Assembly: GCA_963774665.1 (NCBI GenBank)
Contig: CAVZGB010000010.1
Span: 515,677 to 579,676 of the forward strand
Direction: 5' to 3'
Length of the DNA stretch: 64,000 nucleotides
Origin: an uncultured delta proteobacterium
GTDB taxonomy: Bacteria; Desulfobacterota; Binatia; Binatales; Binataceae
Every line of letters begins with the position of its first letter. Within the stretch, counting starts at the first letter, position 1. Below are positions 19,883 to 26,599 of this stretch, one piece after another. The position numbers were made by a program, and so were the translations under genes. The notes beneath the pieces are model-generated. The model was not told the DNA's origin. It saw only the letters and a program-made list of their open reading frames with translations, and did no database searches.

Positions 19883-22775
19883 CTACGCTCCCACGACTGC
19901 GCGGCATCTCGCGTCCAGTGTTTCGCCGCCGGCGTCATCGAAGTATTTCCAGCATCGCGCGCACTTCGCGCCCGACGCATGACGCCCGACCAGCGTTATT
20001 GCAGGATTCGCCGCTGCGCGTGCGAAGGTACCGTCGAGGGCGAAATCCTCGCGGCCGTTGGCTTGCTGCCGGATCTCGGCCGCTTCCGCATCGGCCAGAA
20101 TCGAAACATCGGAGACGATGAACAAGTCTTTCAGGTCGTCGCGGTATCGCTTCAACGTATCGGCAAGCGCGCTGTCAGAGCCACCGTCAGCGCCTAGACT
20201 GATCGCAGCATCGAGCGGGGCACCGATTGTCCCTGACTTGCGCATCGCTTCGAGCAGCTTGAGCGCCTCGTCGCGAACCTTGAGCAGCCGATCCCATCGC
20301 GCTTCCAAATCGTCATCGCGCCACGCCGGGTTCGCGGGATGCATCGTGGTCAGATGCACGCTGTCGAGCCGCTCTCCCGGGAGGTACGAGTAAACCTCTT
20401 CGGCGGTGAACGGGATCAGCGGCGCGAGCATCCTGACGAGCACGTCGAGAATATTGAACAGCGCGGTCTGCACCGAGCGGCGCTCGCGCGAATTCTCGGC
20501 CTCGCAGTAGAGACGGTCGCGCGCGACGTCGATATACAGCGAGCTCAAATCGACCACGATAAAATTCTGCATCACCTGGAACGCGGTCTGGAACTCGAAC
20601 GCTTCGTACGCGCGGCGCACTTCGGCCTTGAGTTTCTCGGTGCGCGCGAGGATGAAGCGATCGAACTCGAGCATGTCCTTCAATTGAACGGCGTCGCGCT
20701 CCGGATCGAAATCAGCGAGGTTGCCCAGCACGAAACGGCAGGTGTTGCGGATCTTTCGATACGACTCCGACACCGCGTTGAAGATTGTCGGGCTGAGCGT
20801 GATGTCGGAGGTGTAGTCGAGCGACGCGTACACCAGCCGCAGCACGTCGGCGCCCATGCGCCCGGCCGCATCGACGGCGTCCTCCGAGTTGCCGAGCGAC
20901 TTGGACATCTTGCGTCCCTTCTCGTCGACCGTCAGCCCGTGGCTGATGATGCTCTTGAAGGGCGCCTTACCGCGCTCAGACACGGCGCAAAAGAGCGATG
21001 AGCTGAACCATCCGCGCGCCTGCTCGACCGCTTCGAGGTAGGCGTCCGCCGGCCATTTCAGTTCGGGACGTACGGCGAGCACGGCGGCTTGCGACGAGCC
21101 CGAATCGAACCACACGTCGAGGATGTCTTCTTCCTTGACGAAGACCGAGCCGCCGCACTTCGCGCATTTGACGCCCGGCGCGACGAAGTCGGCAGCAGGC
21201 CGGATGTACCATGCGTCGGAGCCTTCGCGCGCGAAAATTTCCTCGACGCGATCCATCGTGACCAGCAGCGGTGCGACCTCGTCGCATTCGGCGCATCTGA
21301 CCGCGGGAATCGGCACGCCCCACGCGCGCTGGCGCGAGATGGTCCAATCCGGGCGCGTCTCTGTCATGTTGCGGATTCGATCGCGCGACCATGCGGGATA
21401 CCACTTCACGCTGTCGATCGCGTCGATCACCTTGGCGCGCAGCCCGTTGTGATCGACGCCGATGAACCATTGTTCGGTCGCGAGAAAAATCAGTGGATTG
21501 TGGCATCGCCAGCAATGCGGATAGCTGTGCGAGAATTTTTGCGCATGCAACAGCGCGCCGACCGTGCGCAGCTTCTCGACGATCGGATTGTTCGCCTTGA
21601 AGACGTTCATCCCTTCCCACTCGCCACCGTCGCGGGTGAACACTCCGCTGCCGTCGACGGGAGTGAACGGGGCCAGCCCGTACGCCTTGCCGACGACGTA
21701 ATCTTCGTAGCCGTGCCCCGGGCGCGGTATGTACGAGGCCGGTGCCGGTGTCGGCGGTGACGTGCTCGGCGTACATCAGCTTGACGTCGCGCGGGAGAAA
21801 CGGATGCCGAAAAATATCCTGGCCGTCGTACGCCTTGATCGCGGCGCGGTCGAGTGGGATTCGTTTTTCGATTGTCAGCTCGCATTCTTTCGCGACGCTG
21901 TCCGCCAATCGCGATGCGACGACGTAATAGTGATCACCAACTTTCAGCGCGACGTAGTCGAAAGTCTCGTTCAGCGAGATTCCGAGATTTGCCGGCAGCG
22001 TCCACGGTGTGGTCGTCCAGATTACCGCCGACAGCTTGCCTGCTTTGTGCGCAGCGGCGAGCTCGGCGCGGTCGTTGGCTTCTGCCGCCAGCGCGCCCGC
22101 ATCCTTGAGATTTGAGTTGAACGCGAACGCCACGTAAATCGACGGTGAAACGTGATCGCGATACTCGACTTCGGCCTCCGCGAGCGCCGAGCGGCAATCG
22201 AAGCACCAATGCACCGGACGCAGGCCGCGATAGACGTAGCCCTGCTCGACCATGTTGCGCAGCACGCGGATTTCCGCAGCGTCGTACTCGGGCGCCATCG
22301 TGAGATACGGATGGAACCAGTCGCCGATACATCCGAGGCGCCGAAAGTCCGAGCGCTGCAGGTCGACCCACTTCTCCGCTTCGGCGCGGCACAATTTGCG
22401 CAGCTCGAGCTTGGGCGTCGTGCGCGCCTTGTCGCCGCCGAGGTCGCGCGAGACTTTGTACTCGATGGGCATCCCGTGACAGTCCCATCCGGGGACGAAC
22501 GGGGTGCGATATCCGAGCATCGAGCGAGAGCGCACGACGAAGTCTTTGAGAATCTTGTTGAGCGCAGTCCCGAGATGCACGCGGCCGTTGGCGTAGGGCG
22601 GGCCGTCGTGCAGGACCCACGATTCCGCGTCCTTGCGCGCTTGCATCAGGCGCGCGTAGAGGTCGAGATCGTCCCAATGCTTGAGCATTTCCGGCTCCCG
22701 CTTGGGCAAGTTGGCCTTCATCGGAAAGTCGGTTTTGGGAAGTTTCAGGGTAGATTTGTAATCGGTCTCAGCCAC
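19883..22775 (-). CDS. ileS: Isoleucyl-tRNA synthetase (frameshift near 21720)
   Basis: HDGPPYANG, HLGT, WTTTPWTLP, KMSKS, C-terminal CARCW. Confidence 0.95.
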
Positions 22776-22863
22776 TCGGCGGGAACTCCTGCCACTTTCT
22801 AATACAGAATCTAGTGTTCTGATCAGATTAACGCACGCGGCGTTCCTTCGCGAGTATCGAGTC

Positions 22864-23667
22864 TCAATTCGCTTTTGCTGCCTCCAGGTATCCGAGAATC
22901 TTCTCGAGCCTCTCAACCGGGCTGACGCATTCGAGCAACGCTTGCTGTTCCGCGACTTCGATGTTCAGATGGCGCGCGATCACATACGAAAGGATCGAAG
23001 GATCTTCTTCGATCTGTCTCATCCGAGTCGCGAGTTCCGGGATGGTCGTCCTCTCGCGGCGTGCATACTTGTGGAACGCGGAAAGCACCGCGAGCACTAG
23101 CTTTTCGACGCGGACGGATCGGTCTGACGTTTCTGCTATGTCTTCGGCTTCGGCCTTGAAGAATTTCTGATCGAACACAAAGCGTCTGACTCGTGCGCGC
23201 TTCTTGCCCTCGACGATGATCTTCGCTGTGCCGTCAGGAAGGCGATGCCGTTCGGCAATGACGCCCAAAGTTCCAACCTCGTACATATCAGCAGAAGAGG
23301 GCATCGCAACTGCCGCCTCACGCTGAGCCACCAGCAGAATCGGAGAGTTTGCGGCGAGCGAGATCTGGGATTTCGGATCTTCCGCCGCCTCGACCGCCTT
23401 TAGCGATCGCCGACGACCGATGAAGATCGGATAGACCTCGTGCGGGAAAGCAACCAATTCACGCAGCGGCACCAGCGGGACGAAGCGGGAAGCGACGGCT
23501 CGCATCAGCTCGGCCCAGTTTTTGTAGCCGTACTCAATTGCGAGTCGGCGTTGCGCGGCGGCCAGTTGCAGGTCCTCCTGCGCGGCGAGCCGCTTCGCCT
23601 GTTTGCGGAGATTTTCTTCGGACGGATTTTCCGGCAGCCGCTTGCGCGGCCCTTGCGATGTGGTCAT
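22864..23667 (-). CDS. Lon N-terminal (substrate-binding) domain protein with a small helical N-terminal module; no AAA+ or protease domain
   Basis: PLVPLRELVAFP, LLVAQR, YEVGT, LPDGTAKIIVEG, QQALLE; N-terminus LPENPSEENLRKQAKRL...AQRRLAIEYGYKNWAEL. Confidence 0.8.
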   Translation of the reverse strand: MTTSQGPRKRLPENPSEENLRKQAKRLAAQEDLQLAAAQRRLAIEYGYKNWAELMRAVASRFVPLVPLRELVAFPHEVYPIFIGRRRSLKAVEAAEDPKSQISLAANSPILLVAQREAAVAMPSSADMYEVGTLGVIAERHRLPDGTAKIIVEGKKRARVRRFVFDQKFFKAEAEDIAETSDRSVRVEKLVLAVLSAFHKYARRERTTIPELATRMRQIEEDPSILSYVIARHLNIEVAEQQALLECVSPVERLEKILGYLEAAKAN

Positions 23668-23783
23668 AGCAAACCCCTTCCTTATGCCCGATGTCCGCTA
23701 ACGGGCAGGAAAAGGTTTATGTTAGTCGAGCAACCAGGGTGGGCTTGGCCCTCTCCGCGGACGGGTGGCCGCCTGACGGCCAT
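23668..23783 (-). ncRNA. Putative structured cis-regulatory 5' leader
   Basis: 5' hairpin, long RBS-sequestering stem, and loop GCGGAC complementary to upstream GUCCGC. Confidence 0.55.
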
Positions 23784-23788
23784 GAGAG

Positions 23789-23817
23789 ATGCTAGTTTGC
23801 GGGCGGCGATAGCGCAA
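23789..23817 (-). promoter_or_regulatory. Sigma-70 promoter for the leader and Lon-N gene
   Basis: TTGCGC-17nt-TAGCAT. Confidence 0.55.
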
Positions 23818-23862
23818 GAAAATGCTAGCTGCGCTCGGTCGTGAGGATGCCGGCGACCTAAC

Positions 23863-24887
23863 TGTCGAGTTGCAATAGGTGTCCTGGGAAGGCGCGAGAT
23901 AGGAGTTTGGCCGCCGATGCCTTGATGGGGACGGTGATGGTTGTAGGAATGAAGCCAGGGCAGCAAGGCTTGGGCGCGTTGTTGGGAATGATCGTAAGGC
24001 CGTGCGTAAGCCCATTCGCGCAGGGCTGTCTGGATTGTAAGCGTTCGGCCTTGCCGTTGGTGCGCGGGATACAGGACGGCGAAAAGATTGCCGTTCATCC
24101 TGCGGCTGCGGCACAGGTCGGCAATAAGGTGAGAACGGTAGGCGGAGCCGTAGTCAGTCATGATGCGCGCGACCGAGATCCCCAGGGTCTGGAAGTGATC
24201 GAGGGCGCGCACGAGGAAGCCGGTGGTGGTTTCCTTGCGCTCGTTGGGCAGAACTTCCATGTAGGCCAGGCGTGAATGGTCATCGATACAAACGTGGGTG
24301 ACCTCGAAGCCAGCACCCAGGCTGCGCTTTTGGTGAGTGCCGGTTATGCGCGAGCCGACCCGCTGGAAGCGGCCGAGCTTCTTGGTGTCGAGGTGCAGCA
24401 GGTCACCGGGCGCGGAATACTCGTAGCGCTGGACAGGTGGCGGCGGTGACAGCGCACTCAGCCGCGACAGTCCGACCCGCTTGAGCAGCCGGCTCACGGT
24501 GGCGATGCTGAGCTCGAGTTGTGCGGCGATATGCTTCATCAGAGGCGCTGGCGGCGCAGCGCGATCACCTGCTCGGCCACCTCAGGCGCGGTCGGACACC
24601 GCAGCCGGTGAGGACGCGAGCTGCGGTCGACCAATCCCGCCGCGCCTTCGCGGGAAAACCGCCCCGCCCACTTGCGCACAGTCTTGTCACATACGCCCAC
24701 GCCCGCTGCGACTGTCTTTGCCAGTTCTCCTGCATTCACCCGCCTGACCAGTCCGGCTCGACTATGCGGCGTTGTGCGCGCATTCTGATGAATGTCCATC
24801 CGGGGTGACCTCCTGAGTCGGTGTTGAGTTTCGCACCTTTCACCTTCTCAGCGTCCTCCCGGAAGGACAACCTATTGAAACATCACA
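23863..24887 (-). mobile_element. IS481-family insertion sequence with a frameshifted transposase
   Basis: TGT...ACA ends with imperfect inverted repeats (shared caataggt); CCTAAC duplicated at 23857-23862 and 24888-24893; MDIHQNARTTP, HLDTKKLG, IDDHSR, YNHHRPH. Confidence 0.92.
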
Positions 24888-24990
24888 CCTAACCCCTAAC
24901 CCCTTCCCATAGTGGGAAGGGGAATCAGAGTTGCGAGAATCGTCGCGTCCTATCCCCCTCGCCCCCTTTCCAGAATGGAAAGGGGGGACA
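24888..24990. repeat. Two tandem REP-like hairpins
   Basis: ccccttccca-tag-tgggaagggg and ccccctttcca-gaa-tggaaagggggg. Confidence 0.65.
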
Positions 24991-25090
24991 GATTTGTTAA
25001 GAGTGAAGGGCCTCTAGTTCGTTTGAATCCCGGCGCGAGGCTCCATATCATTTCTCGTTCATCATAATCGCACTATCATAGAAAGAAATT

Positions 25091-25390
25091 ATGGGACTTA
25101 GAAAAGTAACTTTTTTCGATAAGGAAGGGACCACGCTCGTGCCGGTGGAGGAGGATGGGCAGGCGAAGCCGGCTGTGATGGGCGTGCGATGGGTCAATCC
25201 CGACACGTTCGAAACGATTCGCGTCGTTGGCGGCAAACGCACCGGGCCGAAGGGCGAAGTGCTTATGGAAGTCCCGCCGACCCTCGACACCAGCGCATTC
25301 GCGATCGAAGATTTGCCGCCGCCCAAGGTCAAAGAAGAGCTCAAGGAGATCGAGGCTTCCGCCGCGCCGAAGTCGACGGAGAAGCCGTGA
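25091..25390 (+). CDS. Hypothetical 99-aa protein coupled to the CoA-transferase genes
   Basis: Clean ORF with a purine-rich upstream sequence; GTGA overlap with the next gene. Confidence 0.7.
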   Translation: MGLRKVTFFDKEGTTLVPVEEDGQAKPAVMGVRWVNPDTFETIRVVGGKRTGPKGEVLMEVPPTLDTSAFAIEDLPPPKVKEELKEIEASAAPKSTEKP

Positions 25391-26599
25391 CGGAGCCGGG
25401 ACCCGGCGCGCTCGCGGGCCTGCGCGTCCTCGATCTGACGGGGCATCGCGCACAACTTTGCGCGCGGCTGCTGGGCGACATGGGCGCCGACGTTATCAAG
25501 GTCGAGCAGCCCGGCGGCGACGACGCTCGTCGCATCGGCCCGTTCCTCGACGATTTGCCGCATCACGATCGGAGCTTGTTTTTCTGGTTCTACAACCTCA
25601 ATAAGCGATCGCTGACGCTTGACCTCAAGCATTCGCGCGGCGCTGATATTTTGCTGCAGCTCGTTCGTTCTGCTGACGTGGTGATCGAGAGCTTTGCGCC
25701 GGGGACGATGGACCAGCTCGGGCTTGGGTGGGAGATTCTCCATCGCGAGAATCCTGCGCTGGTGCTTTGCTCGATCGCGCCGTTCGGGCAGACCGGCCCC
25801 TATCGCGACTATGTCGCCGATGACACCGTGCTGACCGCGCTTGGCGGGATGCTCTACGTCAACGGATTCCCCAATCACGCTCCGGTGCGTCCGCTCGGTC
25901 TGCAGGCCTATCACTCGTCGGCGTACTTCGGTGCGATCGCAGTGATGCTTGCGCTGCTCGCTCGCGACCGAACTGCTGAAGGACAGTGGATCGATCTCGA
26001 GCATGCAGGAGGCCACTGCTGCGGCCGTCGAGCACGTCGCCGGCGGATACTTTGAGCGCAACGAAGCGGAGCCGCGCCGCGGGACTCTGCACTGGAGCCG
26101 TTTCTTTCGCGTCGGCAAATGCCGCGACGGGTACATCATGCATTGCACGCTCGGCGACTGGACCTCGCTCATCGAATGGGTCAAGTCCGACGGCAAGGCG
26201 GCCGACCTCGACGCGCCGGACTATCAACAGCCGATGTATCGCTACCTGATGGCCGAGCATGTGTTCGAAGTGCTCGACGATTGGGTCAAGGATTATCCGC
26301 GCGACGAATTGCTCGAGCGCGCGCAGCTTTTGCGCCAGCCGTACGCGACCGTTCGCCCGCCCGAGGCGTTGTTCGACGACGAGCAGCTCATCGAGCGCGG
26401 CTACTTCGTCGAGGTTGAGCATCCCGAGCTGGGGCGCAAGTTCCGCTATCCGGGAGCGCCGTATCTTTTCAACGGCACGCCGTGGCGCGCGTCGCGGCGG
26501 CCGCCGCTGGTGGGAGAGCATACCGGTGAGATCTTGCGCGACGAGCTCGCGATGGCTCCGGAAGCAATCGCCGTGCTCTCCGCAGAAGGAGTGATCTGA
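25387..26599 (+). CDS. Family III CoA-transferase, CaiB/BaiF (frameshift near 26000)
   Basis: LAGLRVLDL, DMGADVIKVE.PGGD, NKRSLTLDL, PP.VGEHT. Confidence 0.88.

Follow-up and report, generated by a model that had tools for sequence, protein, structure and literature searches.

The stretch of DNA under study (64,000 nucleotides (nt) from an uncultured delta proteobacterium of the Binataceae, contig CAVZGB010000010.1 of assembly GCA_963774665.1; here called the window) carries on its minus strand a gene for a protein that begins with a short helical module and continues with a Lon N-terminal domain. This gene is preceded by a leader of 123 nt which appears to be one copy of a folded mRNA leader of soil bacteria that is distributed over many phyla. 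A preliminary description had drawn attention to this leader as a structured RNA with a promoter, a hairpin, a stem sequestering the Shine-Dalgarno (SD) sequence and a possible pseudoknot. All elements that it described (promoter boxes, hairpin, GUCCGC, SD stem, the helix P4 and GCGGAC) are present on the minus strand and are given here together with the later additions.

23812-23817, minus strand: putative -35 box TTGCGC, with a 17-nt spacer to the -10 box
23789-23794, minus strand: putative -10 box TAGCAT, read from the sequence
about 23782-23786, minus strand: probable transcription start
23662-23784, minus strand: whole leader motif, 123 nt, the span matched by the covariance models R1 and R2
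23766-23782, minus strand: hairpin H1, UGGCCG (23782-23777), loop UCAGG (23776-23772) and CGGCCA (23771-23766); 6 of 6 pairs covary
23757-23762, minus strand: 5' arm of the first pseudoknot (PK1), GUCCGC; partner at 23693-23698
23741-23751, minus strand: hairpin H2, GGGC / CAA / GCCC; covaries
23735-23739, minus strand: 3' arm of the second pseudoknot (PK2), CCUG (23738-23735); partner CAGG in the H1 loop, 23775-23772
23719-23734, minus strand: variable linker of 16 nt, poorly conserved in sequence and length
23707-23718, minus strand: 5' strand of helix P3 (anti-SD), AAACCUUUUCCU, forming 12 base pairs (bp) with AGGAAGGGGUUU, two of them G-U
23686-23706, minus strand: helix P4, GCCCG (23706-23702) and CGGGC (23690-23686), with its apical loop; sits atop P3
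23693-23698, minus strand: 3' arm of PK1, GCGGAC, in the P4 loop; exact complement of GUCCGC
23671-23682, minus strand: 3' strand of P3, AGGAAGGGGUUU, which holds the SD sequence
23665-23667, minus strand: start codon ATG
22864-23667, minus strand: coding sequence, 267 amino acids
23482-23637, minus strand: N-terminal module, residues about 11-62 (LPENPSEENLRKQAKRL...AAQRRLAIEYGYKNWAELM)
22882-23481, minus strand: LON_substr_bdg (Lon N-terminal, LON-N) domain, residues 63-262; Pfam PF02190, E 2.3e-42

The 3' boundary of the motif lies 3 nt beyond the ATG. In its source genome (G000:C10:539338-539460) the leader scores 151.8 bits (R1) and 123.1 bits (R2), and the scan with covariance models reveals only this single copy. 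Folding of the single sequence gives a minimum free energy of -52.1 kcal/mol (z = -2.22), and 7 of 200 shuffled sequences are equally stable; single-sequence folding taken alone is weak evidence. The register of PK2 shows a one-base ambiguity in the window. No terminator-like site was found by the scan of the leader (minus) strand. From one soil metatranscriptome (X20) contigs of relatives cover 23599-23801 only, since the remaining gene is too diverged, and these contigs are uninformative on start, end and level of the transcript.

Conservation and fold of the leader

Orthologs were sought by protein search in 60 relatives, comprising 36 genomes of the same genus and 24 from other families of the class. 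Full-length orthologs including the module occur in 10 of the 36 genomes of the genus; the 24 genomes of other families contain ordinary Lon only and no full-length ortholog. The ortholog proteins are 58-75% identical, yet between the -35 box and the ATG the DNA hardly varies among all ten, and the few changes are concentrated in the loops of the two hairpins, in the linker and in the loop of P4. Sequences 5' of the -35 box are unrelated, and the boxes TTGCG(t/c) and TAnnAT are preserved despite these differing flanks. Thus, the proposed promoter TTGCGC-17-TAGCAT stands as far as the presence and conservation of its boxes in the 10 orthologs is concerned, but a simple sigma-70 consensus scan calls no promoter in the leader region.

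Covariance model R1 was built from 11 aligned rows of the genus; they include the unpublished genome G024, and the conclusions are independent of it. This model matches 19 of 47 genomes of the genus with 17 copies of the ortholog type, one weak match (25 bits) and three diverged copies (67-78 bits). The diverged copies precede paralogs that retain the module and continue with an RNA polymerase alpha-CTD-like domain plus LON-N, with a LON-N domain that has an alpha-CTD-like insert, or with a GNAT acetyltransferase, respectively. In the leaders of these paralogs H1 and P3 exhibit compensatory changes.

Conservation at the nucleotide level continues in the coding sequence. Among nine orthologs of the genus (G024 with an in-frame TGA and G003 with a split match were dropped from this count) the fractions of identical codons at identical residues are 0.88 and 0.80 in the first 30 codons (23578-23667) versus 0.44-0.69 later. 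These frozen synonymous sites suggest an RNA-level constraint that would reach about 90 nt into the coding sequence; in three other clades the conservation of early codons is weaker or mixed. A helix between GCGGAGA of the leader and UCUCCGC of the coding sequence, predicted by RNAalifold from the 11 sequences of the genus and a candidate cause of the frozen codons, is not preserved in the three paralogs (CUG CGC, CUG CGU and CUA CGC) and was rejected as a general feature.

Beyond the genus two alignments were used for the analysis of covariation. A4 contains 84 sequences of many phyla chosen by the RNA pattern, and A8 contains 72 distinct rows from 80 metagenome loci that were chosen solely by the peptide pattern of the module, which avoids a bias towards the RNA pattern. 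In A4 93.4% of the cells are paired (75.8% in shuffles, 41-46% in slid controls) and double changes are found in 25 of 27 pairs. In A8 the respective value is 93.2% versus 82.3% in shuffles and 31-45% in slid controls, with a covariation score of 0.305 versus 0.125 that is reached by none of 500 shuffles. This means that the structured, conserved leader proposed in the preliminary description is borne out by its near-invariance in the 10 orthologs and by covariation across phyla, also when the leaders are collected upstream of module genes as that description had recommended. H1, H2, P3 and P4 each covary in A8. In P3 double changes affect 10 of the 12 pairs in A8 and all 12 outer-stem pairs (split 11 + 1) in A4, so that the SD-sequestering stem holds as well. 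H2 covaries where it was not preselected by the search pattern (GGAC/GUCC, GGGAC/GUCCC and others), P4 covaries in A8 (at one pair CG 38, UA 27, UG 6), and GCGGAC is retained though it lies outside the search pattern. As G-U pairs are abundant, it is the RNA of the sense strand that folds.

The pseudoknot between GUCCGC and GCGGAC, formerly proposed from exact complementarity, is supported by compensatory changes. In the columns aligned by the covariance model 132 distinct sequences show 114 times GUCCGC/GCGGAC, 17 times GUUCGC/GCGAAC and once GUCCGC/GCGGAU, and none is discordant; in A8 this helix is 100% paired. The change from C-G to U-A thus occurs in 17 + 1 sequences, the extra one being a model-found GUUCGC/GCGAAC in another sequence context, and the change from U-A to C-G occurs once, in the model-found copy ACCCGC/GCGGGG. 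Further model-found variants are GUCCGC/GUGGAC with a G-U pair and a copy in which one pair is mismatched (GUCCAC). The 17 GUUCGC sequences probably represent one clade and, therefore, the independent events in PK1 are few. Extension of PK1 by a seventh pair, formed by the bases that flank GUCCGC on its 5' side and GCGGAC on its 3' side, was considered and rejected, because 98 instances reveal no correlation (C with A17/C15/G18; U with A17/C11/G18/U1; one G with G).

A second pseudoknot is likewise supported by covariation. In PK2 the end of the H1 loop, (n)AGG, pairs with CCU(n) that follows a conserved A located 3' of H2. The counts in A8 are GC 46, AU 13, GU 7 and other 1 for pair 14-67, GC 64, AU 2 and other 1 for pair 15-66, and AU 34, CG 7, GC 6 and other 10 for pair 13-75. 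A mutual-information scan of A4 for additional pairs returned the known helices only; PK2 was missed there because A4 had been preselected by pattern. H1, H2, P3, P4, PK1 and PK2 are mutually compatible and can coexist. This makes the RNA a double pseudoknot, with the SD hairpin docked onto a compact 5' domain, and roughly 25 unpaired or junction bases are nearly invariant across about nine phylum labels. The leader as a class is about 120-150 nt long, and the transcript would begin with the 5'-terminal hairpin H1 or shortly before it, immediately behind its own promoter.

Some copies deviate from this scheme. At the loci L111, L139, L109, L085 and L142 an extra hairpin sits in the bulge that separates P4 from the SD strand of P3, and because of it the first model aligned only their 5' halves. 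At L113:1221-1314 the 5' domain occurs alone (39 bits), lacking the GCGGAC partner, in front of a secreted-looking protein of 915 amino acids; this copy is probably decayed or rearranged.

With regard to translation it is relevant that the P3-P4 hairpin alone has a median stability of -21.4 kcal/mol (65 distinct sequences; -22.4 kcal/mol in the window) and that opening of the SD strand costs 8.3 kcal/mol in the median and 13.4 kcal/mol in the window. Since the SD sequence lies within a stable helix and all helices are compatible with each other, the folded RNA would be the SD-masked state, with translation off or low. A candidate for an alternative 'on' fold, pairing the conserved GGrAAGGG with the anti-SD strand, is complementary in the window and not complementary in the GUUCGC clade (anti-SD CCCGUGCU); it must be regarded as rejected or weak.

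Distribution and coupling to the N-terminal module

In order to delimit the occurrence of the leader, one genome per prokaryotic species was scanned with a degenerate core pattern of 26 letters, YGTCCGCNGNNAGGGCNNNGCCCACC. This pattern gave at least 120 matching stretches, while about 2 are expected by chance according to a rough estimate that was not computed by a tool. As judged from record titles, the genomes of the matches listed bear about nine phylum labels, among them Acidobacteriota, Planctomycetota, Gemmatimonadota, Actinomycetota (Amycolatopsis, Nocardioides, Peterkaempfera and others), Alphaproteobacteria (Reyranella), 'delta proteobacterium', Sorangium, Chthonomonadales, Candidatus Moanabacter, Latescibacterota and Binataceae. 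Cultured carriers, again by record title, include Amycolatopsis rubida DSM 44637, Amycolatopsis vastitatis H5 and Peterkaempfera griseoplana NRRL B-3064. Covariance model R2, rebuilt from 60 diverse copies, yields 79 matches in 77 of 80 listed pattern loci, and the other three loci are chance matches of the pattern. The number of copies per genome ranges from 1 to 7, with seven in one genome labelled Gemmatimonadaceae and four in one labelled Acidobacteriaceae. In the sample of the window's phylum only 1 of 151 genomes has the motif, namely the window's own genome, and in the phylum sample around genome G218 there are 13 of 151; both counts are undercounts because of strict filters. The patchy distribution fits a horizontal spread.

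The preliminary description had suggested similar leaders in front of other genes that start with the module LPxxPxxExLRKQAK. This is confirmed from both directions. At all of the 80 metagenome loci chosen by the module peptide the RNA occurs in the orientation of the gene and runs up to the start of the module (75 full length, 4 cut by the contig end and 1 weak with 21 bits). Conversely, a match of the hidden Markov model of the module lies directly downstream of 75 of 79 matches that were found by RNA first. The four misses are a match at the edge of a contig, a partial RNA, and two RNAs of full length that precede ankyrin proteins. The C-terminal domains vary: of 20 downstream proteins scanned 17 have ankyrin repeats, one has a weak match to leucine-rich repeats (LRR), one has weak methyltransferase matches and one has none, and in the window's genus LON-N, LON-N with an alpha-CTD-like domain, and GNAT are found. 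A -10-like TAnnnT box is located about 5-9 nt 5' of H1 in most of 72 copies inspected from several phyla (seen by eye, uncounted). Because of this box, the two-sided linkage and the N-terminal position of the module, we consider promoter, leader and module as one cassette; promoter, leader and the first 60-90 codons appear to travel together before differing C-terminal domains.

A profile search with the module retrieves 10,203 cluster representatives (clusters of 50% identity) at E<=0.001, and in 146 of the 150 best of them the module begins no later than residue 22. Since the RNA was present at all 80 module loci, the leader probably has thousands of copies. In many cases the profile search returns two matched stretches per protein. 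Several module proteins, among them those of loci L130 and L140 (at residues about 90-150), have a second tandem ...ARxHGFxSWxxL helix pair that lacks the LPxxPSLEQLRKQAK helix.

The consensus of the module reads LPxRPSLEQLRKQAKxL...(D)AQxxLAREYGFxSWxxL, with a helical insert in some copies. No Pfam family matches it in the window or in other proteins, and a protein-atlas search with it leads to unnamed clusters only; the LON-N part of the window protein is clearly recognised by PF02190 (145.6 bits, above the gathering cut-off of 28.7). An AlphaFold2 model of the module has three helices (residues 17-31, 35-45 and 51-61) and a core with pLDDT >90. The module is mildly basic, with a median net charge of +3 and a positive charge in 78% of 105 matched stretches (second repeats counted). 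NCBIfam NF004629 (PRK05973, 'DNA helicase') matches 4 of 6 module proteins with 19-29 bits in the profile region 6-65 alone; its whole-protein threshold of 156 bits is not reached by any of them, and the resemblance is confined to the module. Searches for associated genes were unproductive: clustering of stop-to-stop open reading frames (ORFs), a noisy test in which the gene itself and frame shadows prevailed, revealed no conserved neighbour gene, and PADLOC gave generic ankyrin matches only.

Possible role of the leader and its novelty

The kind of element is already known, namely an SD-masking pseudoknotted leader. That such a leader is coupled in a near-obligate manner to an N-terminal protein module which is portable has no precedent known to us. 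Few structured leader RNAs combine a complex tertiary fold with occurrence in several phyla, and most of the known ones are riboswitches or key regulatory elements. On the basis of sequence comparison we rate this leader as a candidate new class of cis-regulatory RNA, uncatalogued in Rfam 15, and leader plus module look like a new portable control unit of RNA and protein. The novelty would have been removed by a match to a described family, and none was obtained. With all 4227 models of Rfam 15 the region 22500-25500 of the window gave 6 weak matches at E<=10, none of them inside 23662-23855, and eight diverse motif loci gave 3 matches at E<=1, none at the motif. In the literature on ankyrin with riboswitch candidates, structured RNAs or LRKQAK no description of the leader was found, survey supplements being outside the scope of this search. 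The word 'ankyrin' is absent from the three GC-IGR surveys of structured noncoding RNA and from the main texts of Weinberg 2017 and Weinberg 2010. According to the main text of the latter the motifs Soil-1 and Solibacter-1 were not sent to Rfam and were marked as not cis-regulatory; these two are described in supplements only, and the leader might overlap with one of them.

We propose that the RNA would hold down the translation of its own gene and that the double-pseudoknot core would offer a docking surface for an effector which sets the closure of P3. The likeliest effector would be the N-terminal module of the encoded protein, resulting in negative feedback. This is favoured because the RNA follows the protein module and not a pathway, and because the module lies at the extreme N-terminus beside the leader. 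An association that is gene-specific rather than pathway-specific is the pattern of protein-binding autoregulatory leaders, and here the RNA is specific to genes with a candidate binding domain (80/80 and 75/79, with two full-length exceptions). The feedback could possibly act in cis, with the nascent module emerging beside its own 5' leader, and in genomes with several copies it might act across paralogs since these share the RNA core. Taken together, this is the reading we prefer, tentatively and with less than even confidence.

Precedents for such feedback exist. The rpsO (S15) pseudoknot, the long-range pseudoknot of L20 and the leader of T4 gene 32 are likewise RNAs of one gene product with pseudoknots near the ribosome-binding site, and in phage lambda the short N-terminal peptide of protein N binds boxB of nutL in its own leader, which makes it a candidate parallel for the module. 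In contrast with these systems, the present leader is tied to a portable domain and follows domain shuffling, and the binding is only proposed here. Known protein-binding leaders are usually restricted to narrower lineages, whereas the near-invariant core of this one is found under about nine phylum labels. The yjdF motif (PMC4793209) resembles it in being a structured leader almost exclusive to one protein family of unknown function, so that the effector is difficult to guess; it differs in that it is another RNA (the present one has no Rfam match) and in that the N-terminal module is common to proteins with differing C-terminal domains. If the module is the effector, the pair would constitute a transferable RNA/peptide feedback unit of interest to synthetic biology, and it would help to explain how domain-shuffled genes keep their regulation. 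A bolder version, which we regard as possible yet unlikely, sees in it a self-contained and horizontally mobile ribonucleoprotein (RNP) feedback cassette: the nascent three-helix module would bind the double-pseudoknot core of its own mRNA and lock the ribosome-binding site, and dosage control would be passed on automatically to whichever domain follows the module (ankyrin, Lon-N, GNAT, methyltransferase). If true, this would add a new class to the protein-responsive riboregulators, one that is defined by a portable RNA/peptide pair instead of a gene.

Several observations weigh against feedback by the module. Near-invariant cross-phylum cores with two pseudoknots are commoner in metabolite aptamers than in protein-binding leaders. 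The predicted fold of the module found no match among solved RNA-binding folds: Foldseek of the model against pdb returned nothing at E<=0.001 (best E = 7) and a wide VIA fold search, with a best Z of 4.1, matched no solved RNA-binding domain. The search for an alternative 'on' fold was without result, as all helices are mutually compatible. The two ankyrin proteins behind full-length RNAs (in L145 and behind the second copy in L126) lack the module. In the GUUCGC clade, where GUUCGC, GC and CA replace GUCCGC, GG and CC in the core, co-variation of RNA and protein is not seen because the conserved residues of the module are unchanged. Finally, PRK05973-type module genes in the phylum sample of the Reyranella-labelled genome G221 occur without this RNA and have a conserved leader of their own; R2 with filters off finds at these loci a best match of 11 bits (E 0.34) that is not upstream.

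Part of these points would be accommodated by a translational riboswitch for a small molecule or ion, in which H1, PK2, H2, PK1 and the junction bases form the aptamer. The ligand would fix the P4 loop onto the core and thereby stabilise or release the SD helix, and the module proteins would be the response to the ligand. The complex fold with two covarying pseudoknots and the roughly 25 unpaired or junction bases that hardly vary under about nine phylum labels have the appearance of a conserved, covarying aptamer, and an expression platform is coupled to it (SD in P3, P4 loop tied by PK1, no terminator). Up to seven and four copies per genome are reminiscent of a regulon, two copies serve module-less ankyrin proteins, RNA-protein co-variation was not observed, and riboswitches that enclose the SD sequence in a pseudoknot do exist. 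Like SAM-II, preQ1-II/III and ZTP/pfl, the present RNA is a 5' leader acting in cis that has the ribosome-binding site in, or docked to, a pseudoknotted core, and it would share with SAM-II, preQ1-II/III and ZTP a terminator-free translational control. The ZTP riboswitch is also composed of a 5' subdomain and a 3' hairpin, separated by a variable linker and joined by a pseudoknot. Unlike these riboswitches, the leader has no match in Rfam 15, its SD helix is long and stable alone, and its genes are defined by the N-terminal module and belong to no metabolic or transport pathway. Neither the 20 proteins scanned nor those of the window's genus reveal a coherent metabolite or ion pathway downstream; the genes served are not the enzymes or transporters of one pathway, and their common features are the N-terminal module and protein-binding repeats. 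The linkage is to the module (80/80, 75/79) rather than to a function, no conserved neighbouring gene family emerged from the noisy test mentioned above, the high stability of P3/P4 alone leaves little room for ligand-dependent folding, and no alternative fold was found. We consider a riboswitch doubtful but deserving of serious attention. If a metabolite is the effector, the leader would represent a new orphan riboswitch class over a large ankyrin-repeat family of soil bacteria. The cultured carriers make the question of the effector directly testable.

The high stability of the SD masking (median -21.4 kcal/mol) can also be read in a simpler way, as a constitutive translational damper and 5'-end stabiliser that keeps protein levels low and has no dedicated effector. 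Its output would then depend on the kinetics of co-transcriptional folding, on RNA helicases or ribosomal protein S1, on cutting of P3 by RNase III or on temperature. As all helices are compatible at once, no switch is required, a 5'-terminal hairpin is located right at the expected transcript start, and the P3/P4 helix of roughly 17 bp resembles an RNase III substrate. For damping, however, the SD helix alone would suffice, and the invariant core, the two pseudoknots, the conserved P4 loop and the near-obligate pairing with one protein module are not accounted for. With the RNA thermometers ROSE and fourU the leader shares the pairing of the SD sequence with a U-rich or pyrimidine strand including G-U pairs (CCUUUUCC with GGAAGGGG in the window). 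In contrast with these thermometers, which have a marginally stable SD helix and no tertiary core, it exhibits a helix of 12 + 5 bp at about -21 to -22 kcal/mol, overly stable for a typical thermometer, plus a double-pseudoknot core that would be superfluous. We hold a mere damper to be improbable.

A dedicated protein or small RNA acting in trans might read the core and run the module and ankyrin genes as a regulon, with the module as a handle at the protein level (targeting, turnover). Paralogous copies in the same genome do share the core and differ in their stems, some copies occur without the module, and the Lon substrate-binding domain of the window protein as well as the protein-binding repeats of others would suit such a handle. 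A co-occurring gene was not identified, though, and the patchy spread (1/151 and 13/151) favours a self-contained unit over a separate host regulator, so that we judge this explanation to be distinctly improbable. A non-translational role, as a self-cleaving ribozyme or as a cut-off RNA that stays bound to the module as RNP partner, is highly improbable in spite of the nested double pseudoknot and invariant core, which are also hallmarks of small ribozymes, and of the strict pairing of RNA and module, because the ribozyme families of Rfam are unmatched, the SD sequence is integral to the conserved fold and thus points to translation, and signs of processing are not seen (the metatranscriptome contigs cannot reveal RNA ends).

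Neighbouring features and further observations

The PRK05973-type genes start with a short module that is related to the one described here. Their leader (loci L295-L306, about 150 nt before position 1501 on the gene strand) has the form GCCCACGCCUCCYCCCUCC ... GGCAUAAGGAGGGGUUGCG ... CAGGAGGUU-AUG. It contains anti-SD runs of the CCUCC type and has no Rfam match; it is a second uncatalogued leader before module-bearing genes.

In the window, ileS follows directly downstream of the LON-N gene on the minus strand. At about 21640-21720 its reading frame breaks up into two ORFs (20976-22916 and 19883-21643) that overlap and differ in frame, which is due to a frameshift or an assembly error. In at least one ortholog locus (L064) an ileS frame likewise lies 3' of the gene.

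Upstream of the promoter an insertion element is found.

23856-24924, minus strand: insertion element of the IS481 family; PF13011 (LZ_Tnp_IS481) with E 1.8e-14, plus rve

It ends 39 nt short of the -35 box; the leader is outside the element. The assignment is based on the leucine-zipper/helix-turn-helix N-terminus, the rve core and multiple genomic copies; rve_3 scores above its cut-off and rve, with 32.0 bits, slightly below its cut-off of 32.6. Elsewhere in the genome there are three near-full copies and one partial copy of 98% identity. Read joints across the element were not seen. The transposase is split in two ORFs (24799-24539 and 24539-23682), and other IS481 copies in contigs of public runs differ from the window copy by several indels of 1-2 bases (e.g., near 23879, 24036 and 24541), which points to frameshifts in the window copy or in the assembly. 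Over the far end of the element, at about 24887-24940, a sequence of 36-53 nt has about 40 genomic matches of 87-100% identity, and at the same place the depth of soil metagenome contigs shows a large spike; the sequence represents either a short repeat of high copy number or a solo end of the insertion element.

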